A DNA stretch of 63,762 bases, the filler included, from Pseudovirgaria hyperparasitica (taxonomy: Eukaryota), in assembly GCA_010093815.1 (NCBI GenBank). It is 10 parts of 6 records of this genome, joined end to end, with 100 filler letters (N's around TTAATTAATTAA, not from the genome) between each part and the next. Parts side by side here need not be neighbours in the genome. Positions count along the whole stretch, not along the records: positions 1 to 16,026 come from ML996587.1; 9 more parts are not named here. One strand, 5' to 3'. Below are positions 3,760 through 37,115 of this stretch, one piece after another (the first letter of the stretch is position 1; each line of letters begins with the position of its first letter). Made by a program: the position numbers and the translations under genes. The notes beneath the pieces were generated by a model, which did no database searches, was not told the DNA's origin, and saw only the letters and a program-made list of their open reading frames with translations.

Positions 3760-4083
3760 ATAATAAGAATATAGTATAATTCTTAAAGTAAAGACTAGAT
3801 AGAGAGAGAACTAAATACATAGAGAGACCGTTCCTTATATATTCCTTCTTATATATTCTAGATCCTTCTCTTAATTAATAATAGGAATCTTCTAGACCTC
3901 TAGACGTATATATACGTTCTATAGCTCTAGTAGCTTCCTTAGAATAGAATAGAGTAGAGTAGAACTCTATAGAACTTATAGACTCTATAGTAGAACCTAA
4001 TAGAACTCTATAGAAGTTCATGTTTCTAAAGACCTCTAGAAGTTTCTAGAGGGTTCTAGAAACTTCTATAAGAGTATAGAGTA
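3760..4083 (+). repeat. LTR-like repeat B, continuation up to the gap
   Basis: Colinear with 47687-47821 and with the reverse complement of ~31048-31275. Confidence 0.8.
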
Positions 4084-4233
4084 NNNNNNNNNNNNNNNNN
4101 NNNNNNNNNNNNNNNNNNNNNNNNNNNNNNNNNNNNNNNNNNNNNNNNNNNNNNNNNNNNNNNNNNNNNNNNNNNNNNNNNNNNNNNNNNNNNNNNNNNN
4201 NNNNNNNNNNNNNNNNNNNNNNNNNNNNNNNNN

Positions 4234-7200
4234 TTTAGATATCTATCTACTAGTTTTCTAGTAATTTAATTCTTAACTTAATAATATTATATACGTTCTT
4301 ATTTATTCTATAACTATTAAATTCTAGGTTCTAATTTCCTTTAAGTTACTTAAGTATAGATATTATATATAAATTAGTTTATCTCTCTAAATTATATTAG
4401 AGTACCCGAACTAGTAGTCTAGTACTTATTAGTTTAGATACTCTAACCTTTTATATTATATATTACGAGTTTAATTCCGTAGTAGAGTACTTTTTTAGTT
4501 CCTTAGTTCTATATTCTTCTCATATATAATAGTCTATATTAGTCTATTCTAGACTTCTCTATATTATTCTATTATAATATATCGCGTCGCGTACCTATAA
4601 CGGTTATTTATATTTTCTTTACGTTTAGTAACTATATATTACTTAAATTATAGAGCTATCTTATAGAGTTTTCCTAGTATATGTTTAGAATTTATAATTT
4701 AATACTTTATTCTCTATAGTATTCTTCTTCTTTTTATAATAGCTCTAATAGTACTAGACTTATAGTAGTAACGTGTTATTCTATAACCTCTATTTATATA
4801 TAGCTATCGCGGTACTTAAGATATATACCGTAGATTCCTAGGTATTCTTATTCTTAGTATAGTTCTTCTAACGGATTTAATACTTTTAGATACTATTCTT
4901 ATTAAGTCTATGTTTAATAATATAGTCTACTTTATATATATCTAGTCTATCTTAGGGTATAATAGAGTATAATTACACGTTCGTACGTTTATATATATTA
5001 GATTAAAACCTTTTAAGTAATAAGATATAGAATATATTATAGACTTTTATATTATTTCCTAGATTAAGCTTATAGACTCTTATACTAATATAATATTTAA
5101 TTTAGAAGGGACTAGCCATTTTATAATTAAGCTTTTTATTTACTTGCGATATTTATATATTATAGATATTAAGAAGAACTTTATCTCTCTTCTTATACGC
5201 TTAATCTTTAACTAATCTATTATAGTACTTTATATATAACTTATTTACTTACTAGATTATTACGCGATAGTTATATATAGTTTTAAAGATTTTAATCGCT
5301 AGTTCCTATACGTAGATATTAATATCTATTATTCGGTTAAACTAGACTATATAAGGTTTAAAACCTATTCTTAGACTATATTCTAGGTTCGCCTAGAAGG
5401 GCGTGATATCTATTATACTATAATAACTATTATTATATATAAATTCTACTATACTTAGTAGAGAGGTCTAGTTATCTTATTTAAAATTATAGAATATATA
5501 AAGGTAGACCTTAAGCGTTTAGTTCTATTACTCTATCTAACTATCTATTTATAGATAGAATACTATTAATATATTTCTATTTATACTAGCTATTTTATAG
5601 AATAATATCTAGAATTTAGACATGAATATACTCCCTTAGTCTATAATAATTCTTTTTAGTATACTATAGACCTTAATAATCTTATTCTAGAATACTTATA
5701 CTAGTTCTTTTAATATAATTATCTTCTATATAGAGATATACCTAGATATCTTTATAAGTCTATCTATAATAATAAGAATTAAATTATAACTTATTCTAAG
5801 TATCTTACTTAGAGGTAAGTTAACTATAAAATCTATAATAATATCTTTCTATATAAAGAGGGGGACTAGTAGAGGCTATAAGTTTCTATATAGCTTATAT
5901 CTAGATATCTTTATTCTTTAATAAATCGGATAAGTAGCTATCTATTCTTTAATATACTTAGATATATCTTTCTAAAAGTAGTACTAATAAATTAAGCTTA
6001 GAGTACGTATATACCTAAAATATTCTACTAGATTAGTATTATAGTATTAGCTAACTATAGTAAATCGTACGTTATCTATTAGTATATAGTACTTTCTATT
6101 ATAGTAGAGTAAGCCGTCCACGAAGGTCTACTTATAGTCTACTTTATTCTATAATAATCTATCTTACTATATTTTATATAACTTTAGAACTATTAGGTCT
6201 ATCTTTTATAGATCTATAATTAACTAGATAAGGTCTACTTAATATATATACTAGGTACTATCGCCCTCCCTAATAGTACCGATAAATAGCTTACTAGAGA
6301 CTTTAGTACCGTGTCTTTAGTTACTAGCTTCGGTCTTATAAATTTAATTACTAGTATTAGTATTAGTATCTCGCTAATTATTAGATAACTTATTATCTAA
6401 CCTTATCCTTAAGAGTTAGGTCTATAGCTACTCTAGAACCCTATAGCTACTATAATTCTAGGCGCCTTCTTTATAGTTAGGTCTTCTTAATATTCTATTA
6501 GCTAGGTTTATACTTTTAGATTAATAGTAGATTATAAAGTAGAAATTTATAAGCTACTTAGCCTATCGAACCTATTAACGATTTAAAACTATCGTACTTA
6601 TAAACCCCTTTAAGTTATAGTAATTAGTTAGTAACTTAACGTTATATATAGTACCTTTAAGATAATATTACTACTACTTAAATGACTCTACTATTACTAG
6701 TAGCTCTTAGTTATAAATAGTATATCTAGTCTTAACGTTAGCTATCTTACGCGAGAAGAACGTAACTAGATACTATTAGACCTTTTTAGACTCTATTAGT
6801 CTAGGCTAGAAGAGTATACCCGAGATTATAAATTCTAATATATTAGTTTCGACGTGAATAGGTTTAGTTAGATCGAAGTGCACTAGTAATAGGGCGGTTA
6901 TAAATACTTCTTTAATCTTCTCGAAGAATATTCTTTCGACCTTAGTTAATTTAATAGGTTATAATTTAATATTACGCTGTTTCTATCTACTACGGACCGT
7001 AATAGACGAGTTAGTAGTAGTAGTATACGTATTAAGTAGTGCGGCTAAACGGGAGAAGTATTTAATAAATTTTTAGTAGTAGTTAGCGAAGCTAATAAAG
7101 ACACGTATATCTTAAACGGATTTTAGTTTCGACTAGTCTATAATAGTAGTAACTCTATCTCTCTCTATAGTTATACCTTAATTAGTAGTAACGAAGCTAA

Positions 7201-10124
7201 GAAAGTTAATATAGTCCTAATGGAACTCGTATTTAGATAGCTTAATATATAGCTTATACTTTTCTAGCCTATCTAGGACTATATATACATGCTAGATATG
7301 CTCCTCCTCGTTATCTAAGAAGATAAGGATATTATCTAGATATATAATATATGTCGTGTCGAGTAGGCCTACTAGCGCGTTATTAATATACGCTTAGAAG
7401 GTGCCTAGCGCGTTAGTTAGTCTAAAAGAGACCATAGTATACTTAAAGTATCTATAACGGGTTCTAAAAGCCGTTTTCTATTCGTCGCCTTCCTTAATAC
7501 GAAGGCGATAGTAGGCGTTATATAGATTAAGCTTAGTAAAGATCTTTACGCGTCCTAGTCTATTAATAGACTCGGAGATAAGAGATAGTAGATAATAATT
7601 CTTTCGTATAATATTATTTAGACTATAGTAGTCGATATATAGATAGAGGCTTCTATCCTTCTTCTTTATAAAGAGAATTAGAGCTCTAGCTAGGGATATA
7701 CTAGGTCTAATCTATCCTTGCGTAAGGTTCTTTTCGATATATTCTCAAAGGGCTTATAACTTAGATTCTAAAAGAGGGTAGATAGGTCTATATAGAGGTT
7801 ACTAGCCGTCTTTAAGATTAATAGTAAGGTTAGTAGATTAGTATTAAGGTAGTTTAGAGGAATTAATCGCTAACGCGATATATTAGTATATTTTATACTA
7901 ATATAGTAGGTTTTCGTCTACTTTAATACTAAGCTTACTATTTTACGTAAGTAAGAGTATATAGATAGTAGAGATCGCCTTCTTATAATCTTTCTAGAAT
8001 TATTCGTCGTTAATAAGCTATACTAGTTCCTATTAAGGTAGATTTATACGCTAGCTAGCTGTCTTCTTAAGGAAGTCTAGTTTTAGATTATATTTCTTAA
8101 GCCACGGTATACCTAGGATTATATTAAAGGGACTATCTACTACGATAAAGGTTAAGTAGTAGAGTTTCTATTTCCCTCCGCTATCCTAGATACTATATTT
8201 AATACTATAGATACCGTATAACTTAATGGGACCGTTAATACTATAGAATATAGTATCTATTAGAGCTTAGATATCGGCGTTAAGTTCTCGTGCTCGTTAG
8301 ATTAATATAATATTAGTAGCCGACCTACTATTAAGTATTATAGTCTAATATTATCTATAAGGGACCTTAATAGATCTAGTCTATAGTTCGATATACTATT
8401 TAGCGGATTACCTCTCTATTATAGTCGTGTCTATAAGTCGCGAGGGTTTCTTATAGACTATTAGTTTTTTATATTCTATACTAGGTAGTTAGGCGCGATG
8501 TATCCTAGCTACTAGCACTTATAGTATATAACTAGTTAGTTAGTTATATTAGTACTCGGTAGCTTCCCTAAACGGTACTTAGATACTATATAGCCTATTC
8601 TACTATAGGTATAGTAAGTAACTTTAGGTCGTTTATATGAGTCGGTCCTTATATCTTAATATATTAATTAGTAGAGAGATCCACGATATAATCCGTGTGG
8701 TTTTAAATTTAAGGTATAGTAGTAGCCTTATAACGTCCTACAAGATCTATTACTAAATTAGTTTTAGTTAGACGATTTTACGTTAGATTAGATCGTTAGG
8801 GATAGTCGTGTACTAGCGCGGTATTAATTATTTATTATACGCTAGTATCGCTCCGCGAGGTTTATAAGAGCTTAGAGGTCTATAGAGATTATTATTATAA
8901 GGTCGAGACGGTCCTTTATATTTAGGGTAAGGGACCGTTTAAAGTCGTCGCACTATTAAATTATATAATCTTCTTCGGCTTCTCTCTAGAGGGGCCGAAG
9001 GTATTTAAGGAGTTATAATAGTAACTAATTATCTCGTTATCGAGTCTTAAAGTTATAGCCCTAGGCCTAGTTACGTCGTTTAGCCCTATTACTAAAACAT
9101 TAGAGGAGAAATTTAGTAAACGTGTCCTAGTTATAGGTATCCTTAGAATATTTAATTTAGTATACTATCTAACGTTCTAAAGGCGTTAGGTTAAGGTATT
9201 TCTAGGCGAATCTAATTTTATCGCTATCGTTCGTGAATAGATAGAAGAATCGGCTATATTAGTAAGCCTATATATAGAAACTCTTTCTACTTTTACTATT
9301 AAAGTAAGGTAGTTTCTTAGATTAGGGTAATTAGGATAGTAGTAGACTAGAATAGATTATTTTAGTTAGTATAGATCTATATAAATATAGATTAGTCGTT
9401 ACTAGAACTAAAGCGCGTAATATAGCTTTAAGTCTCGTAGTATATTCTTAAGCTTCGTCGAGTTTATATAGTTATTACTTAAGTTAAATCTATTATTACC
9501 TCTCTTCGTGTAGTCTAGTATATATATTATTATAAGGTATAGTTAACGTTAGGCGATTCTAATAGATTAACTCGTTAATATTAATAAGGTCTAGCCTCGT
9601 GTTAAGGTTAGGTCTAGTATAGTTTAAACTAGACCGAGATAGAGTATAATAGACTCTATCCTTATATTCTATAATATCTTCTATAGTTATACGGAATATC
9701 GTGCGAGTTATCGGTGCGATAGCCTATAAGGTATAGTTATTAGTAGGGGTAGTTATAGGTAGACTATTCTCCTCGTTTAGGTTAGGAGAAGGTCTACTAT
9801 AAGAGGCGGTGTCACGAGTATTATAATAAGTAGTTCGAGCTATTTCTATAAACTACTATTATACTATATAAAGGGAAATTAAAATATAAGAATTATAGAC
9901 GTAGAATAGTAGTCTAATAGGTTATAGAAGGATTTAGAAATATATTTAAAAGGGTAGTCTACTCTTATAATAAGGTTAATTTCTAAAGAGTAGAAATTAA
10001 GTATATATAGTCTACTTATATAGTAGTCTTACTTAATCTAGCTAACTTAACCTAGGTCCACCTATCACGGACCGTACTAGACTATAGTAGTCTAGTTAAG
10101 TCTATTCTAGTATTAGCCCTAATA
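4234..10124 (-). mobile_element. Ty3/Gypsy chromovirus A, near complete, RIP-mutated
   Basis: Minus-strand relics: two gag CCHC knuckles (~8490-8620), protease LDSGS (~8330), RT KTAFRTR and YLDD (~7330-7480), RNase H ETDAS (~6845), integrase, chromodomain; 4420-6930 is the reverse complement of 61245-63762; terminus TATTAGGGC (probably TGTTAGGGC) shared with the copy ending at 36615. Confidence 0.92.
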
Positions 10125-10618
10125 CTAAGAAGGTTAATATAATCTACTATAGAGATAAATAATACTATATTAAATAATAGAGATCCTCTATAATTAGTAT
10201 TAAATCTAGCTATTTCTAACTAAGAAGTAGAGATATTAGACTAAATTATAGAGATTTCTAATAAAGAAATAGTAGATATACTAAGTAACTTCTAATAATA
10301 AGAAGCTAGATAATAAGTTATAGCGGAGCTATATAAGGTATTATAATAAACTATTACTAAACTATAGAAGTATATTACTAATTAAGTCTAGAAGATTTAG
10401 ATACTTAAAGAATAGACTAAATATATAAAACTCCTTATAAAGAGATAAGAACTTAAGAAGTCTCTTAAAGAACTATACTAAATAATAGTAGATAAATAAC
10501 TTTCTATACTAATTTAGATAGAATTAGTTTACCTACTACTAGAGTTATAATAATCTACTATAATTCTAGCTACTTCATTACTAACTTACTCTATTCTATC
10601 TCTAGATATACTAAAATC
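10125..10618 (+). pseudogene. Probable gag relic of another LTR retrotransposon, continuing at 15944-16026
   Basis: Joined across the LINE TSD it de-RIPs to about PKxKDPTxFTxKNQKEWKDWKRxCEKYF, resembling fungal retrotransposon gag. Confidence 0.45.
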
Positions 10619-10860
10619 GATCACGTTACTTCTTTTACATCCCTAAGAGGCCAACTTGGTCCATTCGGGGTAATATAGTAAGATACACACCTTAATCGAT
10701 AGAGTATACCGAGTACACCAACTACTACTATACGCACGTACGTGCAGCGTCGAAACCAAGACGCTACCGCCGTATAAAGATATATATATACCCTCTTAAA
10801 ATCCTCACGGAGATAGAGGCACGGACCACGCTACTAGAACGCCGACACGCCGACCCCCTT

Positions 10861-10891
10861 TTATTAGTTAAGGGTAGCCCTTAACTAATAA
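10861..10891. repeat. 31-bp palindrome, 5' copy, ending 2 nt before the ORF1 ATG
   Basis: TTATTAGTTAAGGG-TAG-CCCTTAACTAATAA followed by at-ATG GCG GCC. Confidence 0.95.
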
Positions 10892-10893
10892 AT

Positions 10894-12357
10894 ATGGCGG
10901 CCTTAGGCACCGACATACCCCGGCATATACTAGATATACCCCTACCGGTATAATAGAAAAGACTATATAGCGATATTACCGAGGGTAGCTATATACCTAT
11001 CTAAAACGTAGAACACACCTAAAGGCGCACGCCGCTATAGATAGATAGAATAAAGGGGACCCCGAGAGGGGAAACCCTCCTAGATCGTATTAACTACTAG
11101 GTAGTACGTGTAGAGAAGGAAGCCGGAGAGGGCTAGAAGACCCTCCTATATATATTCTAGAACCTTATCTAGAATCTAAAGGGAATTACGGAGGAGGAGA
11201 AGAAGATATAACTAGGAGGACTAGAGGGTAGGCTCGACCGAATAGAGGCCAGCCTACGTAGAATCTAGGAGAAACTTACTTAAGGTAAGCGCCCTAGTAC
11301 ATAGGTATAAATAGTAGTAATACCGGAGACTATACTACGGGCCCTCCGGACCGGCGACGTGGCGTATAGTATATATATTATAATCTAGGATAAGGATACC
11401 CTAGCATAGGTCTAGCGAGCATCCCTAAAGGACATAGTAAGTAAGATTAATAAATAAAAGGGAATATAGTTAAATGTCGTTACCGCTAAACTCACGCTAG
11501 AAGAAGTAGTACTTACTATGATAACGAATATCATGTAGTAGACTATCTCACGCGATCCGAACGCGATTAGTAGTATCTTCCTAGGCGTCTCTATTAGGGC
11601 GGCCACATACCCGATATAGATATACTCTATGCCCGTAAGCGGATAGGTTATTAGAGAAGAGGATATCACGCGGATAGAATAGTTAAACGAGCGAAAATAC
11701 CTAGAGATTAAGATTATAAGAGTATGGTAGAAGAATATATAAGGGATTAAAACTAGATTAAAGGTATACTCTACTATAATAGTGGAGCTTAAGGACCCCG
11801 CCCTCGCGTATTAAATTATATAAGAGGGATTCCTAGTAGAAGGGGAGCTTCTTATAGCGGAACCATGGGATAGAGCATAGGCGATAACATAGTACTTTAA
11901 CTATTAGGGATACGGGTATACGGCATAGCGGTACTCCTAAAAGACTAGGTGTAGGTAGTATCGATAAGAATATAGTACCTAGAAGTGCCCCCACGGGATA
12001 TAAGGAGAGGGCTAGAGAGATAGGGACACGGCGAAGTACTCTAACTACGACGGCAAGTACCCGTCGTGGTTAGCTATATACGCGAAACGCAAATAGGTTA
12101 CCAAATACATCTACTTAATCCGGATAAAGGGAGTAAGGTAGCTATAAACGATGCGATCTACTACCGTTCCTCTCTTTACTATAATACTACTACTATAGAC
12201 TACCTCCTCACGAGGAAGCGGTTAGGAATAGTAAACCATCCCGAGAAAGCTAATAATAGGACGGCCCTAAGGAATTACCAAGGCCGCCACCGTACGAGAA
12301 TAGTCGCGACTTAGAGGAACGAATATATAGGCCTATACATTCCCTAGCACCCAATAA
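10894..12357 (+). pseudogene. LINE ORF1 (gag-like, three CCHC knuckles), RIP stops
   Basis: ATG at 10894; 1464 nt = 488 codons; de-RIPed CFNCQGYGHTAQRC, CGWC..H..C, CSNCDGKHPSW..C; ends FPSTQ*. Confidence 0.88.
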
Positions 12358-15300
12358 GAGACCAAGACACACTTCTAATTATATAGGCAAACGTATAGTA
12401 TAAACGTAAGAACTAGGCGATACTCCTCGAGGAGACCGGAGCTATAATACTTACTATACAGGAGCTATATAAACACTACTAGACGAACAAACTAACAACA
12501 CACCTAGGATATTATATAATACACCCCCTAGGACCGGAGAGGAGAGTCCTCTTCTATATCTATAAGTCTATCCTACTCTTATTATAGTCGTATACTAAAC
12601 GGGATAACCTTCGGATAATACTATACCTCTAGATGAATATCGGACCCCTCCATATATATAATATATATAATTAGAACCGATCGCTTTAGGCGGATGACAT
12701 ACTTAAGGGCACTACCGAGCTAGGATAATACATCCTCCTAGGAGATTTCAACCTCTATTATAGCTAGTAGGGTGGACTAACCGTCACCCGCGAAGAGCTT
12801 CGAGCTAGAGAACTACGCACCTAATGCTACGGCTTTCTATATCTTCTTATACTAATAGGATAGATTACCTAGCGAAAACATAAATAAGATAAGGGCGGAT
12901 CTACACTCGACCTCACCCTAGCTACTAGATACCTTTATAATAGGACTTAATACTACCGCCTAAGCCTTATATAGATAGACTCCGACCACGAATGCATGGA
13001 GACCTTAATAGACGTATCTACCCCTTAAGACTAACGAGGGCGATAGCTATAGAAGGATACTAACTAGGAAAAGTACCTAAAGGACCTGGAATTAACGATT
13101 CTAGACCCGTCTATAGTTAATATATCTAATGGCCCGGCCATCGACTAGGCCGTGAATATACTCCTATAGGCGTACTAGGGAGCAAGAGATAAACACGTGC
13201 CGTACCGAATATATAGACCCCTAGACCCGAAAAGTATACCTTAAGTGCGAGAGCATAGGCGAGAAGTCCGGAGATTATATAGACGCGTATACTATAACCG
13301 TATACCTAAAGCGTAGGATGAATAGAGAGAGGTAAGAAGATAACGAGATAAAGTCCTCCGTAACAAGCGACGTAAATAGTAGCGTATAGTTACGGATAGA
13401 TACACACGCAACACCACTAGACTATAGTATATAGTAAAATGGGCCAAAAGCACCGCCTCCCCGACACCTATACCACTTATACCTCCCCTTATATATTAAG
13501 AAAAGACGTACTCTACGAGCCTCGAGAAAACAGAGATCCTATAAGAGGTTATATTCCCTCTCCTAGAACCCGTAGACCTATTAGATATTAACGGCACGGA
13601 ATACCCGGAAGCCGTAAGTATCCCTAGAGAAATTACGGACGACGATATACTTAGTACTATTAAGACACTCCCGAACGACAAAGCGCCCGAGCTAGACGGA
13701 ATTCCGAATCAATATCTTAAGAGGACTATATAGGCGACCTTACTAATTATAGACTATATATTCCGAGCGTACGCCCGTATAGGATACCACCTATAGAGCT
13801 TCCGAACCGTATATATAGTTATACTTCTAAAACTAGGGAAGAGCCTAAATACGCCGAAGGGATAGAGGCCGATCGCCCTTCTCTTCTACCTAGGCAAGGT
13901 ACTAGAAGCTACGATTACTAAGAAGATAAGCATAGTAGTATAGGTACACGGCCTTCTCCTAGTAAACCAGAAGGCGAAGGTAGAAAGCTCCCTAATTATA
14001 GCCATTTAACACATCCTCGAGGTTATCTAGACTATATAGAAATAAGGACGAGTCGTTACGCTACTCTCCCTAGACATAGTAGGGGCGTTTAATAAGGTAA
14101 ACCATATAAGACTTATCTATAACCTCCGGATGAGGCGAATACCTAAGTAGATTATATAATTTATATAGTCCTTCCTCGCGTAAAGGACTACTTAAATATA
14201 TATCCCCGGATACCGAAGCGAATATAAGGAGACGGTATACGGCATCCCGTAAGGGAGCACTATCTCCCCGATCCTCTTCCTCTTCTTTATAGTAGATCTC
14301 CTTTAGAGAATAGAATATATAGAGGTAGTCGGATACGCGGACGATATATACCTCCTCGCGGTCGATAGTAGTACTAGTAGAACATGTACACGACTCGAAC
14401 GAGACCACGAGAAATGCGTCTAGTAGGTAAAGCACCATAGAGTAAAATTCGCACCTAAAAAATACTAGCTTATATACTTTATTAACCGCTGTAGAGGATA
14501 GGCTACTAGGGAGGGGGCACGTCGCCCCTAAATCGACGCCTTTATAGAACTACTAGCATAGAGTATACACGTACTCGGCGTTATAATCGATAATAAGCTA
14601 AAATAGGGACCATAGGTGGCACACGCCGTCTCTAGAGCCCTCTAGGTAGAAACCGCTATACGCCGGATTACGGTATCTACGTAGGGAATAGCCTAGGATA
14701 AGACGAGATAGCTATACGTCTCCCTAGCACGCCTAGCCTTTATATACGGACACGAGTACTAGTATACGGCCCTTATATAAGCTCGGCGGGTAAAGCTTAA
14801 GTCCATATAAAACCGTATACTCCGTCTTATCTCCGGCGTATATAAAGCTACTAACATGACACTCCTCTAACGCGAGACAAACGTAATAAGTATATAGGAC
14901 TTCTACTAGATATAGAGACTTATATACTTTACTAAATAATAAGCATAAGAACGTGGAGGAGATAGGGTATATACCTTCGCCGTACTACGTACACGTATCC
15001 GCGCGCATTACTAGGCCCTCCCTACTATAGAATAAACTCGAGTATAATATAAATACTATATAGAGGTAGACTCGAGCTAGACCGCGTAGGAGGTTCGAAA
15101 TAACCCGGATACCGTCCCGAGCTAATAGAACCCTAAGAAGCTTAGCCGCATTATACGGTTATAGATCTAGGATAAATAGAGGGAGATACTTAAAGCCTAG
15201 TAGGCCTCCTAATAGGATAGGTATCTAGAATAGATCTAAGGGCCTTAGAAGGAACCGAGTAAATAGATGTATAAAGGGCTAACGAAGGCCTAAGTATCCA

Positions 15301-15677
15301 TACTCCTCCAAGCCCGAATAGGCGCTATAGGCCTCCTATATTACCTCTACTAGAGAGGCGTCCTAGATGTATCTCCCTAGTGCGAGGACTACGGCCGGAG
15401 AGGCATAATACGCCACTACCTCGCGACGTGCTCTAGCCTATATACCCTAAGATAAGCCCTCGTCCGTATGATGAGGACCTCCGATATCACGCGATAGCTT
15501 TATAAATACCCTAAGGACGTCGCCCGATAGATGCTCGTATACCTTTCTCTCCCCTAGTTCTAGTGGACCCGCGTATATATACTAGAAGAAGCCCGATATA
15601 TACTAGAAGAACCCCGGTATACGTCGGAAGAACCCCGGGAGAACCGCGATTATTAGTTAAGGGCAGCCCTTAACTAA
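12354..15677 (+). pseudogene. LINE ORF2 (APE endonuclease + reverse transcriptase + C-terminal Cys/His motif), RIP stops
   Basis: 3324 nt = 1108 codons; IQEP, LLGDFNLHH, STLDLT, DSDH, KAPxxDGIPN, WRPIALL, GAFDKV, GIPQGS, and GYADD at 14331 in frame. Confidence 0.92.
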
Positions 15678-15680
15678 TAA
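15650..15680. repeat. 31-bp palindrome, 3' copy, overlapping the ORF2 stop
   Basis: TTATTAGTTAAGGG-CAG-CCCTTAACTAATAA; read in the ORF2 frame it de-RIPs to DYQSRAALD*. Confidence 0.95.
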
Positions 15681-15901
15681 TCTCCGTACCTACACGTGCT
15701 GCCTAAGGGCAAACCATTATAATATAGGCTGTAGGCCCATGGGTAGCCTCTAGGGCTATATATATATAAAGAACGAGAGGATAGATAGAGCGTAGTCATG
15801 GATATAAGGGAGTTTTTCCTATTCGTAGGTTTCTTCTTATATAGTAGCTTAGACTAGAGGAGGCATGCGCCTGTAGAGTGGTACTCTACCTAGTTTACCA
15901 A

Positions 15902-15935
<34 letters not shown>

Positions 15936-16026
15936 CTAAAATCTAAAGATCTAACTATATTTATAGAGAAGAACTAAAAGGAGTAGAAAGACTAGAAGAG
16001 AAACTATAAAAAGTACTTCCTTAATA

Positions 16027-16529: not shown

Positions 16530-17035
16530 ATTATATAGACTACTACTACTAAATACTAATATACTAACTCTCTCTTTTTTTATTACTAGTTAAGGGTATC
16601 TCTTAACTAATAACTATAGAGGCCTTAGATACTAATATACTCTAGCTTCTACTAGATATAACTCTAATACTAGTATAGTAGAAATAGCTATATAGTAGAA
16701 TATCCTAGAATAATTAAATCTCTATCTAAAAGATAATAAATAACTAAAAATATAGAATAATATAGATAAAGAAGAAAGAGAGAACTTTAGCTAGAGATAC
16801 TCTTATAGATAAAATTAACTATTAGATAATATATATAGAAAAAAAGATTAAGAAAAAAGAGTCTACTCTTCTTAATATCTTTTAAAGTCTAGTCTAAAAT
16901 ATTAAAGAGCTTACTATAGAAGTAAAATAGATACTAGAAGTAAATCTAGAATCTAGATTAGACTAGATTAAGACTAGTTTACTAAGAATCTAGAAAGGCC
17001 TTATCTAGAAGAAATATCTAGCTACTTAGATATAA
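16530..17035 (+). mobile_element. Old, heavily RIPed LINE 5' UTR/ORF1 start fragment
   Basis: Degenerate palindrome at ~16582-16612 followed by sequence colinear with the ORF1 start. Confidence 0.75.
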
Positions 17036-18910: not shown

Positions 18911-19954
18911 TAATAATAATTATAATAATATTATATAACTAGGTAGAGTAGTTTACTCTATAGATATATACCTTCTCTAGTCTAAGCTATTATATAAGAA
19001 GAAACCTTTATAAAAGGAAAAACTCCCTACTCTCTATAACTATATTTTATAAAACCTTTATATTATCTTAAGTATATAGCTATTAGGAATATCTATAGAT
19101 CTATAATCTATAGTACTATTATTTTTACCCTTAGGTAGTATATATAGAGTATAGGGGTTATTAGTTAAGGGCTACCCTTAACTAATAATTAGGGTTCTCC
19201 CGGGGTTCTTCTAGCGTATACTAGGGTCTATCTAGTATATATCTAGTTACTTCTAGTATATATATCTAGGTCTATTAGTATTAAGAGAGAGAGAGATATA
19301 TAAGTATCTACCGGGTAATCTTCTTAGAGTACTTATTAAGCTATTATATAATATTAGAGATTCTTATTATATAGATAAGTAATTATCTCTATATATAGAG
19401 GTCTAGATATATTATAAGATAGTACTATATTATATCTCTTTAGCTATATACTTTATACTATAGAGATATATCTAGAACGCCCCTCTAATATAGATAGTAT
19501 AGAAGTTCTATAGCTTCTATTTAGACTTAGAGAAGGATAGATACTTAGGCTTTTATAAGCCCTTTATATATCTATCTACTTAGTTCCCTCTATAGTCTCT
19601 AAATCTATTCTAGATATCTATTCTATTAGAATATCTAATAGATCTAGAGAACTTCCTTCTATTTATTCTAGGTCTATAACTATATAGTCTATATAAGCTT
19701 CTAAGAGTTCTAATAGTCTAGGAAGATATCTAGATTATCCCTAATCTCTTATATAATTTAGTTTAAATCTATCTCTATTAGACTTTTATACTATAGTTAA
19801 GTCTAGTCTATATATAGTAATACTTAATAGTAGATACTAACTTATATATATAGCACGGCGAAGGTATATTTAGCGTATTCTATATATTTCTATACTTATT
19901 ATTTAGTAAAGTATATTACCCTCTATATCTAGTAGAAGTTCTATATATTTATTA
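18911..19954 (-). mobile_element. Old LINE, 3' part (continues at 24126-27170)
   Basis: Tail at 18911-18930 and palindrome at ~19158; interrupted by a younger LINE with a 13-bp TSD. Confidence 0.9.
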
Positions 19955-22900
19955 GAAAAAAACTTCTCATACCCTAACGGACTAAACTAGTTAATTCGGG
20001 GTAAAACAGTGATTTACATACATTAAACGATAGAGTACACCGAGTATAACAACCTCCGACACACGTGTATACGTATAGCGTATAATACGCGACGATACTA
20101 ACGTATAGAGACACTATATATATACGCTCAAAGACTCTTTAATAACATAAGCATAGACTATATCTAATAAACGCCGACACGCCGACCCCCTTTTATTAGT
20201 TAAGGGCTACCCTTAACTAATAACCATAGCGGCCTTAGGCATTATAATACCCCGGCATACGCTGGATATACCCCTACTAGTATAGTAGAAACGGCTATAT
20301 AGCGATATTAACGTGGATAGCTAGACACCTATCTAAAATATAGGAACTAACTAAGGGTGTAAAGCGCTATAGATAACCTAGACTAAGGGGACCCTGAGAG
20401 GGGAGACCCTTCTAGATAAAATTAAATACTAGATAACACGTATAGAGAGGGACGCCGAGGAGGGAAAGAAGACTCTCCTTTATATATTCCGGGACCTTAT
20501 CTAGAATCTAAGAGGAATTACGGAGGAAGAAAGGAAGTCGCTACGAGAGGAACCTAGTGGTAGGCTCGACCGAATAGAAGCTAGCCTACGGAGAATCTAG
20601 AAAGAGCTATCCTAAGGTAAGCGCCCTAATACATGGGCTTAGATTATAGTAATACCCGGAGCTACCGCACTAAGGACTACTAGAACCATAGATAGAGTAT
20701 ATAGTATATATATCGTAATCTAGGATAAGAACACGCTAGCGTAGGTCTAATAGGCATCCCTAAAGGAAATTATAAATAAGATTAATAAATAGAAAGGAAT
20801 GTGGTCGAGCGTCGTAGCTACTAAAGTTACGCTAGGTGGGGTAGTACTTACTACTATAACGAATACTACGTAGTAAAACATCTCACGAGATCCGAACGCG
20901 ATAGATAGTATCTTCTCTAGCGCGTCTATTAGGGTAGCTATATACCCGATTATAGTATATATAATACCCGTATAGAGATAGGCTATCGGAGCGGAGGATA
21001 TCACGCGTATAGAACAATCTAACGCGCGAAAATACCTAGGGATTAAGATCGTAAAAGCGTGGTAGAAGAACCCATAGGCGATTAAGATGAAGGCGAAAAA
21101 ATACTCTACTATAATTATAGAGCTCCGAGACCCCGCCCTTATATAATATATTATATAGGAGGGATTCCTAGTAGAAGGAGAGCTCCTTATAGCCGAGCCA
21201 TGGGATAGAGTATAGGTAATAATATAGTGCTTTAACTATTAAGGGTATAGATATACTATATAAAGATACTTATAGATAACTAAGTGCGGATAGTACCGTA
21301 GAGACCACGCTATCTAGAAGTACCCTTATAAACCGCGAGGAGACGGACTAAGAAACAGGGATATAGTATAGTATTTAAACTACGACGGGAAACACCCGTT
21401 ATAGTTATTAATATATATAAAACGTAAATAGGTTATAGAATACATTCGCACGATAAAAGCGAGAGGCGCGAGATAGTTATAGAATATAATATCTACTACG
21501 GGCCCTTCCTTTATAATACCTCTAACCTCCCCTCCGGAAGATAGTTAGGCGGGATAGTAGACTATCCCGAAGACGATAGGACGACTAAAAGATATAGTTA
21601 AAGCCGCTACCGCGTAAGGATAGTCGCGCCTCCGAGGAATAAGTATATAGATATATATACTCTCTAGTATCTAATAAGGGACTAGAANNNNNNNNNNNNN
21701 NNNNNNNNNNNNNNNNNNNNNNNNNNNNNNNNNNNNNNNNNNNNNNNNNNNNNNNNNNNNNNNNNNNNNNNNNNNNNNNNNNNNNNNNNNNNNNNNNNNN
21801 NNNNNNNNNNNNNNNNNNNNNNNNNNNNNNNNNNNNNNNNNNNNNNNNNNNNNNNNNNNNNNNNNNNNNNNNNNNNNNNNNNNNNNNNNNNNNNNNNNNN
21901 NNNNNNNNNNNNNNNNNNNNNNNNNNNNNNNNNNNNNNNNNNNNNNNNNNNNNNNNNNNNNNNNNNNNNNNNNNNNNNNNNNNNNNNNNNNNNNNNNNNN
22001 NNNNNNNNNNNNNNNNNNNNNNNNNNNNNNNNNNNNNNNNNNNNNNNNNNNNNNNNNNNNNNNNNNNNNNNNNNNNNNNNNNNNNNNNNNNNNNNNNNNN
22101 NNNNNNNNNNNNNNNNNNNNNNNNNNNNNNNNNNNNNNNNNNNNNNNNNNNNNNNNNNNNNNNNNNNNNNNNNNNNNNNNNNNNNNNNNNNNNNNNNNNN
22201 NNNNNNNNNNNNNNNNNNNNNNNNNNNNNNNNNNNNNNNNNNNNNNNNNNNNNNNNNNNNNNNNNNNNNNNNNNNNNNNNNNNNNNNNNNNNNNNNNNNN
22301 NNNNNNNNNNNNNNNNNNNNNNNNNNNNNNNNNNNNNNNNNNNNNNNNNNNNATACTAGAATACGAGAAATAAACACGTACTATACTAAATATACCGGCC
22401 CCCGGAAGCAAAGGGGATTCCTTAAGTATAGGAAAGTAGATAAGACGCCCGAAGACTATATAGACGCGTATACTATATAAGAATACCCGAGTCGTAGAAA
22501 GAATAGAAGGAAGTAATATAATAACGCGATAAAGTCCTCCGTAATAAAAGGCATAAATAGTAGTATATAATTACTAGTTAATAGACACGACACGTAATAG
22601 GGCTATAGTATATAGCGAAATAGGCTAAGGGCGTAGATACTCCGACTCCCCCGCTACTTATACCTCCCCTAATATATTAGGGAAGAATATACTCCACGAG
22701 CCTTAAGAAAACTAAGGCCCTACGGGAGGCTATGTTCCCTCTCCCGGAACTAGTAGACCTATTAGACGTTTATAACGCCGAATACCTATATATAGTAGAT
22801 ATCCCCGAAGAAGTTACGGAGAAGAATATACTTAATATTATTAAGATACTCCTAAATAATAAAGCATCCGGACTAGATAGAATTCTAAATTAATATCTAA

Positions 22901-24125
22901 AAAGAACTATAAAGGCGACTCTACTACTTATTACTCGTATATTCTAAGTATACGTCACGTAGGGGTACTACCTCTAGAGCTTCCGAGTCGCCTATACTAT
23001 TATACTCCCGAAACTAGGAAAGAGCCCTAACTCCCTAAAGGGATAGAGACTAATCGCCCTTCTCTTCTACCTAGATAAGATACTAGAGACTATAATAGCG
23101 AAGAAGATAAGTACCGCGGTATAGGAATATAATCTCCTCCCTCTAAACTAGAAGGTAAAGATAGATAGCTCTCTAATAATAGCTATCTAATATATTATTA
23201 AAGTCGTCTAGGCCGTATAGAAATAGGGACGGGTAGTATCGCTTCTCTCCCTTAATATGGCCGGAGCGTTTAATAAGGTAAACTATATAAGACTTATTTA
23301 TAACCTCCGGATAAGACGAATACTAGAATAGATTATACGCTTTATATAGTTATTCCTTATAGNNNNNNNNNNNNNNNNNNNNNNNNNNNNNNNNNNNNNN
23401 NNNNNNTTAATTAATTAANNNNNNNNNNNNNNNNNNNNNNNNNNNNNNNNNNNNNNNNNNNNAACTAAGTAAATAGATATATAAAGGGCTAACGAAAGCC
23501 TAAGTATCTATACTTATCTAAGCCCGAACGGGCGCTATAGAACTCCTATACTATATCTATAAGAGAGGCGTTCCCGATACCTCTCTATAGTATAAGGCGT
23601 ACGGCCGGAGAGGCATAATACACTACTATCTAGCTATATACCCTAACCTCTATATATAATAGTAATGGCTTATCTACGTTACGAAGACTTTAAATATCGT
23701 ATAATAGCTTAATAAGTACTCTAAGGATATCTCCTAATAGATGCTTATATATTTACTACTCCTCTAGTACTAATAGACCTAGAAATATATACCGGAAGAG
23801 ACCCGGTATACGCCGGTAGTAACCCGATATATACCGGAAGAACCCTAGGAGAACCCCGATTATTAGTTAAGGGCTACCCTTAACTAATAACCTCCGCACC
23901 TATACGTGCTACCTAAGAGTAAAATAATAGTAATATAGGCTATAGACTAATAGGTATACTCTATAGCTATATACTTAAGACGAAATAGAGGCTTAACGAG
24001 ATATAGTTATAGATATAAGGAAGTTTTTCTCTATGGGGTTTCTTCTTATATAGTGGCTTAGACTAGAGGAGGCGTAGGCCTATAGAGTACTACTCTACCT
24101 AGTTATACAATATTATTATTATTAT
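19955..24125 (+). mobile_element. LINE (type B) with both ends, gaps inside, nested in an older LINE
   Basis: 5' end gaaaaaaacttctc and tail at 24110-24125; TSD tatatatttatta at 19942-19954 and 24126-24138. Confidence 0.9.
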
Positions 24126-27171: not shown

Positions 27172-29006
27172 AAAAAACTTCTTTTACATCCCTAAGAGGC
27201 TAACTTGGTCTATTCGGGGTAATATAGCGAGATATATACCTTAATCGATAGAGTATACCGAGTATACTAACTACTACTATACGCACGTACGTATAGCGTC
27301 GAAACTAAGACGTTATCACCGTATAAAGATATATATATACCCTCTTAAAATCCTTATAGAGATAGAGGCACGGACCACGCTACTAGAATACTAATACGCC
27401 GACCCCCTTTTATTAGTTAAGGGTAGCCCTTAACTAATAAATATAGCGGCCTTAGGCACTAATATACCCCGGTATATACTAGATATACCCCTACCGGTAT
27501 AATAGAAAAGACTATATAGCGATATTACTAAGGGTAGCTATATACCTATCTAAAACGTAGAATATACCTAAAGACGTATACTACTATAGATAGACGGAAT
27601 AAAGGGGACCCCGAGAGGGGAAACCCTCCTAGATTATATTAACTACTAGATAGTATATATAGAGAAGGAAGCCGGAGAGGGCTAGAAGACCCTTCTATAT
27701 ATATTCTAGAACCTTATCTAGAATCTAAAGGGAATTATAGAGGAGGAGAAGAAGATATAACTAGAAGAACTAGAGAGTAGACTCGACTAAATAGAGGCTA
27801 GCCTACGTAGAATCTAGGAGGAACTTACTTAAGGTAAGCGCCCTAGTATATAGATATAAATAGTAGTAATACTAGAAGCTNNNNNNNNNNACTAAATAGA
27901 GGCTAGCCTACGTAGAATCTAGGAGGAACTTACTTAAGGTAAGCGCCCTAGTATATAGATATAAATAGTAGTAATACTAGAAGCTATACTACGGGCCCCC
28001 CAGACCGGCGACACAGCATATAGTATACACGTCATAATCTAGGATAAGAATACCCTAGCATAGGTCTAGCGAGCATCCCTAAAGAATATAGTAAGTAAGA
28101 TTAACGAATAAAAGGGAATATAGTTAAATATTATCGCCACTAAACTCACGCTAGAAGGAGTAGTACTTACCACGATAACGAATATCACATAGTAGACTAT
28201 CTCGCGCAATCCAAACGCGATTAGTAGTATCTTTCTAGGCGCCTCTATTAGGGCGGCCATATACCTAATATAGATATACTTAGTATCTATACGGGGATAG
28301 GCTATCGGAGCGGAGGATATTACGCATATAGAATAATCTAACACACGAAAATACCTAGGGATTAAGATCGTAAAAGCATGGTAGAAGAACCTATAGGCGA
28401 TTAAGACGACAATAAAAAAACACTCTACTATAATTATAGAGCTCCAAGACCCCGCCCTTATATAATATATTATATAGGAGGGATTCCTAGTAGAAGGAGA
28501 GCTCCTTATAGCCGAGCCATAGAATAGAGCATAGATAATAATATAGTACTTTAACTATTAAGGGTATAGATATACTATATAAAGGTACTTATAGAAGACT
28601 AAGTACGGATAGTACCGGAGAGACCACGCTATCTAGGAGTACCCTTATAAACCGCGAGGAGACAGGCTAAGAAATAGAGATATAGTATAGTACTTAAACT
28701 ATAACGGGAAACACCCGTTATAGTTATTAACGTATATAAAACGTAAATAGATTATAGAATATATTCGTACGATAAAAGCGAGAGGCGCGAGATAGTTATA
28801 GAATATAATATCTACCTCGGGCCCTTCCTTTATAATACCCCTAACCTCCCCTCCAGAAGATAGTTAGGCGGGATAGTAGATTATCCCGAAGATAACAGAA
28901 CGACTAAAAGGTATAGTTAAAGCCGCTACCGCGTAAGGATAGTCGCGCCTCCGAGGAATAAGTATATAGATATATATACTCTCTAGTATCTAATAAGGGA
29001 CTAGAA
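27172..29006 (+). mobile_element. LINE 5' UTR + ORF1 (A/B chimera)
   Basis: Type A 5' end and palindrome at ~27410; type B sequence after ~28280. Confidence 0.9.
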
Positions 29007-29106: not shown

Positions 29107-29786
29107 GGGCTATAGAAGGAACCGAGTAAATAGATATATAAAGGGCTAACGAAAGCCTAAGTATCTATACTTATCTAAGCCCGAACGGGCGCTATAGGAC
29201 TCCTATACTACCTCTATAAGAGAGGCGTCCCTGACGTGTCTCTATAGTATAAGGCGTACGGCCGGAGAGGTATAATACGCTACTATCTAGCTATATACCC
29301 TAACCTCTATATATAATAGTAATAGCTTATCCACGTTACGAAGACTTTAGATATTATATAATAGCTTAATAAGTACCCTAAGGACGTCTCCCGATAGATA
29401 CTTATATATCTACTACTCCTCTAGTACTAGTAGACCTAGAAATATATACCGGAAGAGACCCGGTATACGCCGGTAGTAACCTAATATATACCGGAAGAAC
29501 CCTAGGAGAACCCCGATTATTAGTTAAGGGCAGCCCTTAACTAATAACCTCCGCACCTATACGTGCTACCTAAGGGTAAAATAACGGTAATATAGGCTAT
29601 AGGCTAATAGACGTACTCTATAGCTATATACTTAAGACGAAATAGAGGTTTAACGAGATGTAGTTATAGATATAAGGAAGTTTTTCTCTATAGGGTTTCT
29701 TCTTATATAGTGGCTTAGACTAGAGGAGGCATAGGCCTGTAGAGTACTACTCTACCTAGTTATATAATATTATTATTATTATTATT
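29107..29786 (+). mobile_element. LINE 3' end with palindrome and tail
   Basis: Matches ~34769-35450. Confidence 0.9.
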
Positions 29787-31358: not shown

Positions 31359-34300
31359 GACCGATCTAAGATTTATATAAGCGATCTTAAAAGACTATTT
31401 ATATTATTCTATAGAGATACACACCTCAATCGATAGAGTACACCGAGTATACTAACTACTACTATATACACGTACGTGCAGCGTCGAAACCAAGATGTTA
31501 TCGCCGTATAAAGATATATATACACCCTCTTAAAATCCTTACGGAGACAGAGGCACGGACTACGCTACTAGAACGCCGACACGCCGACCCCCTTTTATTA
31601 GTTAAGGGTAGCCCTTAACTAATAAATATGGCGGCCTTAGGCACCGACATACCCCGGTATATACTAGATATACCCCTACCGGTACGATAGAAAAGGCTAT
31701 ATAGCGATATTACCGAGGGTAGCCATATACCTATCTAAAACGTAGAACACACCTAAAGGCGCACGCTACTATAGATAGACGGAATAAAGGGGACCCTAAG
31801 AGGGGAAACCCTCCTAGATTATATTAACTACTAGGTAGCACGTATAGAGAAGGAAGCCGGAGAGGGCTAGAAGACCCTCCTATATATATTCTAGAACCTT
31901 ATCTAGAATCTAAAGAGAATTACGGAGGAGGAGAAGAAGATATAACTAGAAGGACCGGAGGGTAGGCTCGACCGAATAGAGGCTAGTCTACGTAGAATCT
32001 AGGAGGAACTTACTTAAGGTAAGCGCCCTAGCATATAGGCATAAATAGTAGTAATACTAGAAGCTATACTACGGGCCCTCCGGACCGGTAACGCGGCGTA
32101 TAGTATACGCGTCGTAATCTAGGATAAGGACACCCTAGCATAGGTCTAGCGAGCATCCCTAAAGGACATAGTAAGTAAGATTAATAAATAAAAGGGAATA
32201 TAGTTAAATATCGTTACTACTAAACTTACGCTAGAAGGAGTGGTACTTACTATAATAACGAATATCGCGTAGTAGACTATCTTGCGCGATCCGAACGCGA
32301 TTAGTAGTATCTTTCTAGGCGCCTCTATTAGGGCGGCCACATACCCGATATAGGTATACTTAGTACCCGTGCGGGGATAGGCTATCGGAGCGGAGGATAT
32401 TACGCGTATAGAATAATCCAACGCGCGAAAATACCCAGGGATTAAGATCGTGAAAGCGTGGTAGAAGAACCTATAGGCGATTAAGAGGACGGCGAAAAAA
32501 CACTCTACTATAATTATAGAGCTCCGAGACCCCGCCCTTATATAATATATTATATAGAAGGGATTCCTAGTAGAAGGAGAGCTCCTTATAGCCGAGCCAT
32601 AGAATAGGGCATAGGTAATAATATAGTACTTTAACTATTAAGGGTATGGATATACTATATAAAGGTACTTATAGAAGACTAAGTGCGGATAGTGCCGTGG
32701 GGACCACGCTATCTAGGAGTACCCTCATGAACCGTAAGGAGACGGGCCAAGAAATAGGGATATAGTATAGTATTTAAACTACGACGGGAAACACCCGTTG
32801 TGGTCGTTAACGTGCATAAAACGTAAATAGATTATAGAATACATTCGCACGATAAAAGCGAGAGGCGCGAGATAGTTATAGAATATAATACCCACCTTAG
32901 GCCCTTCCTTTATAACACCCCTAACCTCCCCTCCGGAAGGTAGTTAGGCGGGATAGTAGATTATTCTAAAGACGATAGGACGACTAAAAGGTATAGTTAA
33001 AGCCGCTGCCGCGCGAGGATAGTCGCGCCTCTAAGGAATAAGTATATAGGTATATATACTCTCTAGTATCTAATAAGAGACTAGAATATACTCTAAATTA
33101 TATAGGTAAACGTATAATATAAAAGAGAGAACTAGGTAACGCTCCTCGAAGAGACCGGGGCCATAATACTCGCTATCTAGGAACCCTATAAATACTACTA
33201 GACGAGTAAACCAACCACACACCCCGGATACTATACTATACACCCTCTAGAACTAGAAAGACGAGTCCTCTTCCATATTCATAGGTTAATACTACTCTTA
33301 TTATAGTTATATACTAAGCGCGATAACCTTAGGATAATACTACACCTATAAATAGATATAGGCCCCCTATATATANNNNNNNNNNNNNNNNNNNNNNNNN
33401 NNNNNNNNNNNNNNNNNNNTTAATTAATTAANNNNNNNNNNNNNNNNNNNNNNNNNNNNNNNNNNNNNNNNNNNNTATAATCTCCTCCCTCCGAACTAGA
33501 AGGTAAAGATAGATAGCTCCCTAATAATAGCTATCTAATATATTATTAAAGTCGTCTAGGCCGTATAGAAGTAGGGACGGGTAGTATCGCTTCTCTCCCT
33601 TAATATAGCCGGAGCGTTTAATAAGGTAAACTATATAAGACTTATTCATAACCTCCGGATGAGACGAATACCGGAATAGATTATACGCTTTATATAGTTA
33701 TTCCTTATAGGAAGAACAACTTAGATATATATCCCTAGATACTAGAGCGAATATAAAGAGACGGTATACGGCATCCCATAAGGGAGTACTATCTCTCCGA
33801 TTCTATTCCTCTTCTTTACGGTAGATCTTCTTTAAGGAATAAAGTATATAGAGGTAGTTGGATACGCTAATAATATATATCTTCTAGCTATCGATAATAA
33901 TACTAACCGAACGTATAGAAGACTAGAATAGGACTATGAGAGGTACCTCTAGTAGGTAAAACGCCACGGAGTAAAGTTCGCCCCGGAGAAATACTAGCTC
34001 ATGCACTTTATTAATCGTTAAGGGAAATAGGTAACTAGGGAAGGCGAATAACGCCCCCAAATCAACGCATTTAACAAACTACTAGTATAAAGCATACACA
34101 CGCTCGGAGTTATACTAGATAGTAAGCTTAAATAGGGACTATAAGTAGTATACGCCGTCTCTAGGGCCCTCTAGATAGAAGCCGCTATATAACGGATTAT
34201 AGCCTCCACGTAGAGAACCGCCTAGGATAAGGCATGCTAGCTATATATATCTATAGCACGACCCGCCTTTACGTACGGACACGAGTACTAGTATACGGCC

Positions 34301-36615: not shown

Positions 36616-37115
36616 TTCTCTCTCTCTATATATTATCTAGTAATTAATTTTATTTATAAGAGTTTCTCTAAGTAGAGTTTCCTCTATTTTAGTTATTTAT
36701 AATATTTTATATTTTTAGCTATTTTTTATTTTCTAGATAGAGATTTAGTTATTCTAGAATATACTACTATATAACTATTTCTACTATATACATAGTAGAG
36801 ATATATCTAGTAGAAGCTAGAGTATATTAGTATCTAGAGCTACTATAATTATTAGTTAAGGGCTATTCTTAACTAATAAAAGAAGATTAGTATATTAGTA
36901 TTTCTTAGTAGTAGTCTATACTTATATCTTTAAAGAGCTTTTAAGTATATATATATAGTATCTCTATATATTAGTATTATTATATATTATATACTATATA
37001 TATATATATATTAGAGGTTATTATACTTAGTATACTCTATTAATTAATATATATAGATTACTATATTACTCTAAATTAACTAATTTTAGTTCCTTAGAGT
37101 ATAAGAAGTTTTTTC
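36616..37115 (-). mobile_element. Old LINE 5' UTR/ORF1 start
   Basis: Degenerate palindrome at ~36849; 5' end gaagtttttt at ~37105-37114. Confidence 0.82.

Follow-up and report, generated by a model that had tools for sequence, protein, structure and literature searches.

The cis-acting signals of long interspersed nuclear elements (LINEs) are usually placed at the extreme 3′ end and in the 5′ promoter. Here we describe a LINE of the fungus Pseudovirgaria hyperparasitica in which one 31-nt palindrome is found at both boundaries of the coding region, ending 2 nt before the start of the first open reading frame (ORF1) and overlapping the stop codon of the second (ORF2), as observed in several copies of the element along a stretch of 63,762 nt composed of 10 parts of 6 records of assembly GCA_010093815.1 (hereafter the window). 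At the level of titles and listings, the literature yielded no LINE described as carrying the same hairpin at the two ends of its coding region, in agreement with the original prediction, which had held that no such LINE was described; however, a precedent exists for one module at both ends, the B-module of the Dictyostelium element TRE5-A, which is the closest one found (PMC3159450). The reported layout of TRE5-A is AB-ORF1/ORF2-BC, with a 290-bp B-module duplicated from the 5′ to the 3′ untranslated region (UTR), and its authors deemed this duplication irrelevant, as sister elements do without it (PMC3159450). The two systems are alike in that a single module, located before the ORF1 start or at it, is repeated downstream of ORF2, and in being family-specific, the close relatives TRE5-B and TRE5-C lacking the feature of TRE5-A. 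They differ in that the B-module contains the ORF1 start and is not described in that work as a palindrome, whereas the LINE of the window carries a 31-nt perfect dyad placed before the ATG and over the ORF2 stop. The kinship is one of kind, and no homology is claimed.

Single hairpins have also been reported in other retroelements. The 3′ UTR stem-loops of stringent-type LINEs, such as the TRE5-A C-module, eel UnaL2 and insect R2, are recognized by the elements' own proteins (PMC3159450, PMC5135761). The C-module hairpin was reported to be required for retrotransposition, with the UnaL2 and R2 stem-loops cited alongside, and hairpins of this type, conserved in untranslated RNA like the one presented here, are thought to give specificity for the element's own RNA; however, they are single and located at the RNA 3′ end, whereas the hairpin of the window lies over a stop codon and is duplicated before ORF1 (PMC3159450). 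The 3′ palindrome was considered as a stringent-type recognition hairpin and rejected, since its position, 254 nt upstream of the tailed 3′ end, does not fit. In the R2 model of Christensen and Eickbush (2005), separate 5′ and 3′ RNA segments are said to be bound each by a protein subunit; R2 and the present LINE would have in common that RNA signals lie close to each end of the coding region, but the two R2 signals are reportedly unlike each other and are not palindromes. In fungi, the GalEa Copia elements contain a conserved hairpin (CHS) of unknown role directly after the 5′ long terminal repeat (LTR) (PMC5445492). It is alike in being a short hairpin of filamentous ascomycete retroelements, better kept than its surroundings and with extended forms shared between families within a species, and differs in occurring once only, after the 5′ LTR, with arms CTGATCAGT and ACAGATCAG and a fixed A/A mismatch (PMC5445492). 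The palindrome was rejected as a form of this hairpin (CHSeq1, CTGATCAGT or CTAATTAGT after the 5′ LTR), as ACTRATYAGT had no match in the window and the element has no LTR.

The whole window was searched for the pattern TTATTAGTTAAGGG-N3-CCCTTAACTAATAA with at most three mismatches, and 16 matches were obtained, against none in each of 100 dinucleotide-preserving shuffles. Twelve of these matches were exact, the remaining ones presenting one (35179), two (16583 and 36849) or three mismatches (45707). The 31-mer is a 15+1+15 palindrome, and the bases beside its centre are complementary (C..G) in the least mutated copies. The comparison of flanks, together with alignments, assigned ten palindromes to a 5′ site in the LINE and six to a 3′ site. 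The 5′ palindromes on the plus strand were found at 10861–10891 (centre A, TAG), 16583–16613 (degenerate, from a third lineage), 20193–20223 (centre T, CTA), 27410–27440 and 31595–31625 (both with centre A), 42049–42079 (centre T), 45707–45737 (degenerate, centre A), 50698–50728 and 58359–58389 (both with centre T), and one degenerate copy on the minus strand, at 36849–36879, belonged to a LINE 5′ fragment of about 200 nt. The 3′ palindromes were located on the plus strand at 15650–15680 (centre A, CAG), 23860–23890 (centre T, CTA, scaffolded to the copy at 20193), 29517–29547 (centre A, CAG, scaffolded to 27410) and 35179–35209 (centre A, with a C at position 9, 35187, scaffolded to 31595), and on the minus strand at 334–364 and 19158–19188 (both with centre A). 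Self-BLAST revealed the palindrome in 16/16 LINE copies covering either position, and no copy combined a 5′-type flank with a 3′-type flank (0/16). The 31-mer is an integral, family-specific feature of the LINE, found at either edge of its coding region. It had been anticipated that the 31-mer would stand before the ORF1 ATG and over the ORF2 stop in every copy covering these sites, and this was borne out; most of the coordinates given were right, while two were off by one (42049 instead of 42048, and 58359 instead of 58358). No copy in the window lay outside the LINE context (0/16), as a scattered mini-repeat would, and the features of an independent mobile palindrome, similar to a miniature inverted-repeat transposable element, were likewise missing in the window, with 0/16 copies at other sites and no direct repeat flanking the 31-mer.

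The placement relative to the reading frames was precise at both ends. With the last letter of the 5′ palindrome at 10891 and the ORF1 ATG at 10894–10896, the spacing is 2 nt, and it was kept in all ten 5′ copies, from three lineages, while the two intervening letters varied (AT, CC, TC, CT, TT). The ATG itself was intact in 2/10 copies, the other eight presenting ATA. A stop codon within the 5′ palindrome (10882–10884) is in the ORF1 frame, 12 nt upstream of the ATG. At the other end, the ORF2 frame enters the 3′ palindrome and terminates at the TAG in 15654–15656 (palindrome positions 5–7). Sequences 10861–10891 and 15650–15680 match at 30 of 31 letters and, taken as the arms of an inverted repeat, are 94% complementary, and all four scaffolded LINE copies hold both palindromes. 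The AT-rich 31-mer contains TAG at positions 5–7 and TAA at 9–11, 22–24, 26–28 and 29–31, closing all three frames, and, because it is palindromic, the same stops are found on the other strand. A joint between 10891 and 15688 observed in run X2 was considered as a deletion derivative and rejected, its shorter side having 25 letters and being explained by the two identical palindromes.

The element lies in a repeat-rich fungal stretch degraded by repeat-induced point mutation (RIP), with GC contents of 20–46% across the window. There are 11 artificial contig joins (16027–16126 and ten others), each formed by 44 N + TTAATTAATTAA + 44 N, and contiguity in the genome is not implied for copies spanning them. 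The full-length insertion extends from 10628, where homology between copies begins in self-BLAST, to 15934, with eight unshared nucleotides (10620–10627) at its 5′ junction, and is flanked by an 11-nt target-site duplication, ATACTAAAATC, at 10608–10618 (left) and 15933–15943 (right). Because this duplication bounds a complete insertion, both palindromes are internal to the LINE. In order along the plus strand, there are a 5′ UTR of about 233 nt (10628–10860, delimited by homology between copies), which separates the 5′ palindrome from the 5′ end; the RIP-degraded ORF1 (10894–12150, end approximate, from translation); the RIP-degraded ORF2 (12210–15656, start approximate, from endonuclease and reverse transcriptase matches), whose stop TAG falls in the left arm of the 3′ palindrome; and the 3′ UTR (15681–15934), which spans the 254 nt between the 3′ palindrome and the 3′ end and finishes in an (ATT)n tail at about 15903–15934. 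The lack of LTRs, the 11-nt target-site duplication and the simple-repeat tail are those of a LINE. In a domain scan of the stop-masked translation (X at stops) in one frame from 10893 to 15680, the reverse transcriptase was recognized in ORF2 (PF00078, RVT_1, E 2.1e-18, 67.2 bits against a cut-off of 29.6), and PF14529 (Exo_endo_phos_2) matched the RIP-degraded ORF2 translation weakly (E 3.5e-4, 20.8 bits, cut-off 27.4); the latter cut-off was clearly passed by the ORF2 of two relatives, P0019 and L067. An RNase H domain is usual in the Tad1 clade, the clade named in the original prediction, and the scan gave no RNase H match in the ORF2 of the window, P0019 or L067. The frame opened by the ATG at 10894 is ORF1-like, with a coiled-coil-like stretch and CCHC-like knuckles distinguished by eye, and its translation had no Pfam match. 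The element is very abundant in the genome, since 13121 contig pieces of run X1 match it. The last 90 nt of ORF2 before the palindrome (15560–15649) consist of a unit resembling TATACCGGAAGAACCCCGG, repeated directly and imperfectly about three times, and they encode a tail reading ILEEARY / ILEEPRY / TSEEPRE that has no counterpart in relatives.

As RNA, the 31-mer is predicted to fold into a hairpin of 14–16 bp with a 3-nt loop. Palindromes in 71-nt contexts gave −27 to −33 kcal/mol, with z-scores of −5.4 to −6.2 and none of 200 shuffles folding as well, while the copy with a C at 35187 folded more weakly (−18.1 kcal/mol, z −3.2). In the fold of 10841–10911 the 5′ hairpin was placed atop an additional helix, formed by an upstream GCCG and a CGGC just past the ATG, so that the start codon would be enclosed; these outer pairs recurred in the T-type copy at 20173–20243. 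A search in Rfam returned no matching family, the single match being DUF805b, far below threshold (E 0.47). Pairing between the 5′ and 3′ palindromes of a transcript is also possible, and each of the four scaffolded pairs would then be mismatched (A.A or U.U) at the centre; no complementarity between the UTRs beyond the palindromes rose above the background of RIP-rich sequence.

We favour, with a probability of about 0.4, the reading that the palindrome is a cis hairpin peculiar to this family, present in duplicate, which acts at the RNA level where the coding region begins and ends. According to this proposal, the 31-mer would have been duplicated inside the LINE and both copies retained while the family was active. 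Each copy would form its hairpin in the transcript with all three frames closed, and the two would punctuate the coding region, the 5′ copy ending any upstream translation and, from 2 nt before the ORF1 AUG, supplying the A at position −3, and the 3′ copy ending ORF2. Being identical, the two hairpins would most likely be bound by one and the same RNA-binding partner, which may be a protein of the element (from ORF1 or ORF2) or a host factor; with both ends of the coding RNA marked in this way, the particle could be assembled in cis or translation controlled. The proposal is supported by the presence of the palindrome in 16/16 copies at two boundary positions with none expected by chance, by the constant spacing to the ATG, the transversion-free arms, the strong hairpin and the stops in all frames. 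It is also supported by a relative, L067, in which a palindrome over the ORF2 stop is repeated upstream (7 matches versus 0.17 expected), by contigs from two other runs that match the LINE best around both palindromes, and by the UTR hairpins of LINEs that are known to be recognized by proteins, namely the TRE5-A C-module, UnaL2 and R2 (PMC3159450).

The original prediction had reconstructed a pre-RIP version with C, C, G and G at positions 5, 9, 23 and 27, but these positions keep C or G in 1 of 64 site-copies, the one being 35187, which leaves that form unsupported. The central CpA keeps its C in 3/11 copies, and, on average, C/G persists at other recognizable CpA and TpG sites of the LINE in 34% and 29% of copies, values biased upward because fully mutated sites are invisible. 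Since copy 16583 presents a T-to-C change at palindrome position 4, the C at 35187 may itself be a new mutation. The simplest reading of these letters is that the active masters would already have had the AT-rich form with stops in all frames. Two further proposals fell with the reconstruction: the ORF2 tail ending in DYQSRAALD*, which depends on that form and rests on almost nothing here, and the GATA-like TGATAA, which needs a G at position 27 that was seen in 0/16 copies and was dropped. When the final 80 codons of the 3′ end with the fewest mutations were used in a word-based search, no candidate emerged from proteins of 44–140 aa or of 141–2000 aa. As a separate observation, runs X3 and X4, which carry the same species label and come from another study, contained next to none of the RIPed LINE copies; their GC-rich contigs, of up to 4.4 kb, match the LINE in patches, best at the depth bins 10806–10983 and 15612–15789, which cover both palindromes, and may correspond to un-RIPed, possibly expressed copies.

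Several observations weigh against the favoured proposal, and the first of them concern conservation. Transversions alone were counted, because RIP makes transitions uninformative. There were zero transversions in both 15-nt arms in 16/16 copies, while the lineages diverge by 5–14% transversions elsewhere in the LINE, and any two lineages typically differ by about 2 transversions in 31 nt. However, 7–17% of all 31-nt windows of the LINE are also free of transversions between lineage pairs, and the flanks of 25–31 nt are kept as well as the palindrome itself, with 0–4 transversion columns in the 31 nt on either side. Between lineages, the palindrome is not conserved to an unusual degree, and the earlier description of copies from subfamilies with diverged neighbouring sequence was overstated, the flanks being no more diverged than the palindrome. 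Any case for selection would then rest on the perfect dyad and on the continued identity of the two copies in several lineages (at least three at each end, as regards the arms), rather than on a comparison with the neighbouring sequence. In addition, the arms are invariant, and covariation therefore gives no means of telling a stem in RNA from a dyad in DNA. To some extent the precise bracketing follows from the sequence itself, as no ORF can run through a segment with stops in every frame. A hairpin so close to the start codon (2 nt upstream) would be expected to impede scanning, and every LINE copy in the window is dead.

The survey of relatives points in the same direction. A full HMMER scan recovered 42081 relatives of ORF2 at E<=1e-3, while a word-based search with the ORF2 region gave 15 distant matches of 20–28% identity; the top relative, P0019, was 31% identical to the degraded translation, with a C-terminus unrelated to the tail of the window. 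The 31-mer, written with RIP-degenerate letters, had no match in metagenome contigs. A profile of ten relatives fetched 80 metagenome loci, of which the best 15 were roughly 26–36% identical to the ORF2 of the window, and 23 of the 80 had intact ORF1 and ORF2. In 21 of these 23, nothing above control level was shared between the region of the ORF2 stop and the upstream part; another of the 23, L027, consists of two tandem copies. No excess of hairpins was found at the ORF1 start or the ORF2 stop of the 23 intact relatives (mean ranks of 0.55 and 0.42). With neither shared ends in 21/23 nor a hairpin excess, the device is dispensable for the clade, and paired palindromes are not a clade-wide requirement.

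These results leave room for a rather unlikely alternative, in which the 31-mer would be a functionless historical duplication like the TRE5-A B-module, a piece copied from one end to the other by template switching that survives because the family is young relative to the mutation rate, its position at the ORF edges being set by the stops in all frames. The 21 intact relatives without such a repeat argue for it, together with a conservation that falls within the range of ordinary windows and the all-frame stops that can be read directly in the 31-mer. On the other hand, only the 31-mer is shared between the two ends, with unrelated flanks (5/9 letters just upstream and none downstream), whereas its arms have stayed identical at both ends in at least three lineages despite the norm of about two transversions over that length. 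Moreover, a perfect 15+15 dyad would be unexpected from a random duplicated piece.

A different arrangement was observed in L067, one of the intact relatives. In this element, the region of the ORF2 stop shares with the upstream part a 15-nt match containing the 13-nt palindrome GGTTCA-A-TGAACC, and GGTTCA-N-TGAACC has four tandem copies (5442–5509) starting from the ORF2 stop, with the TGA within the first one, in addition to two inside ORF1 (959–1013). It is a second, independent case of a palindrome at the ORF2 stop recurring upstream. L061, 81% identical to L067, kept the first ORF1 copy exactly (1275–1287) and lost the second. L003, from a different lineage, has three tandem 13-nt palindromes near the ORF1 end (6611–6663) and one about 230 nt upstream of ORF1 (5132–5144). 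The tandem arrays have a period of 17–20 nt. The 13-nt palindrome is too short for a stable RNA hairpin and, being also inside ORF1, would fit a DNA site better, which again weighs against an action on RNA.

Such arrays favour a second alternative, in which the palindrome would act as DNA and be bound, at both coding ends, by a dimeric protein encoded by the host or by the element, with an effect on sense or antisense transcription, chromatin state or looping. The perfect dyad suits this explanation, and the A and T centres, both present in amplified lineages, are equivalent in it, as they represent one site on opposite strands; the weak antisense promoter reported in the C-module at the 3′ end of TRE5-A offers a parallel (PMC3159450). 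However, no known binding motif was identified in the 31-mer, the GATA reading hanging on the unsupported de-RIPed form, and a coupling with translation is suggested instead by the distance of 2 nt from the ATG and by the stop codon lying within the palindrome. The DNA-site explanation is considered unlikely.

The central base of the palindrome showed a further regularity. On the element strand, it was A in 11 copies and T in 5, and the centres of the two ends agreed in all four scaffolded copies (A/A three times and T/T once). This sample is small, since margins of 3 and 1 give perfect agreement a chance of 1 in 4, and 10861/15650 is the only gap-free pair, the other three crossing assembly gaps. 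The 3′ ends at 29517 and 35179 (A) and at 23860 (T) were 0–0.5% transversions apart over 15260–15649 and 0–1.8% apart over the 3′ UTR, whereas the 5′ parts of the same copies belonged to lineages 12–14% apart. Consequently, the 3′ centre follows the 5′ centre of its own copy and not its own flanks. Template switching at inverted repeats was reported to yield spacer inversion and arm homogenization (PMC8604942, PMC8794818), a process that is alike in accounting for a change of centre from A to T with perfect arms. It is, however, a mutational process rather than a function, and it leaves the agreement between the two ends unexplained. There are also mosaic LINE copies, with 5′ parts and bodies from different lineages, which may be assembly chimeras.

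On this basis, the 31-mer could be a moving module, either a junction for recombination or template switching or a short palindrome with mobility of its own, which several families of retroelements would have acquired and whose centre would have been flipped by exchange. Its attractions are the mosaic copies, one of which (58148) switches lineage within an 85-nt interval containing the palindrome, and the agreement of the centres in spite of the near-identical 3′ flanks of the A and T forms. It is nonetheless improbable, as no copy lies outside the LINE, no 5′ UTR–palindrome–3′ UTR recombinant or target-site duplication around the 31-mer was found, the other mosaic breakpoint falls inside ORF1, away from the palindrome, the one LTR element of the window has no copy with up to three mismatches, and the evidence from mosaics and pairs is open to chimeric assembly and to the gap joins that three of the four pairs cross. 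Most doubtful of all is a composite scenario in which the boundary hairpin was acquired by template switching among unrelated retroelements of the fungus and its two copies, centre included, were kept alike as a working pair, whether to circularize the RNA and let ribosomes that have finished ORF2 begin again at ORF1, or to bind one dimeric factor at both ends, with the GGTTCA-N-TGAACC arrays of L067, L061 and L003 as the same device in another host.

Other palindromes and features were observed in the window. A RIP-degraded LTR retroelement occupies 3762–10124 on the minus strand, with reverse transcriptase and RNase H at 6000–7798, and its near-end palindromes (4035–4070, 9611–9635 and 9638–9660) are unlike the LINE 31-mer. 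Within the ORF2 of four LINE copies, a 22-nt palindrome, CTCCCCTAATATATTAGGGGAG, was found at 22664, 30556, 44733 and 54525, one copy differing by one letter. A second palindrome, GGACCTAGAATCGG(C/T)GATTCTAGATCC, was found at 30155, 44332 and 54124; both may be products of RIP on CpG-rich dyads. Finally, a sugar transporter exon on the minus strand (37452–38471, PF00083, E 2.2e-52) escaped RIP and lies in a GC-richer island amid the repeats.

As it stands, the paired palindrome of this LINE is a well-documented curiosity rather than a demonstrated mechanism, as close relatives with the feature were not found in the searches described and most of the relatives recovered are without it. If the favoured reading of a duplicated cis hairpin acting on the RNA is true, identical hairpins at the start and at the stop of the coding region would extend the repertoire of LINE signals by a new type, and would offer a handle on the cis recognition, translation or packaging of the LINE transcript. 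Whatever its role, the palindrome accompanied a very successful burst of copying in the genome of this fungus.

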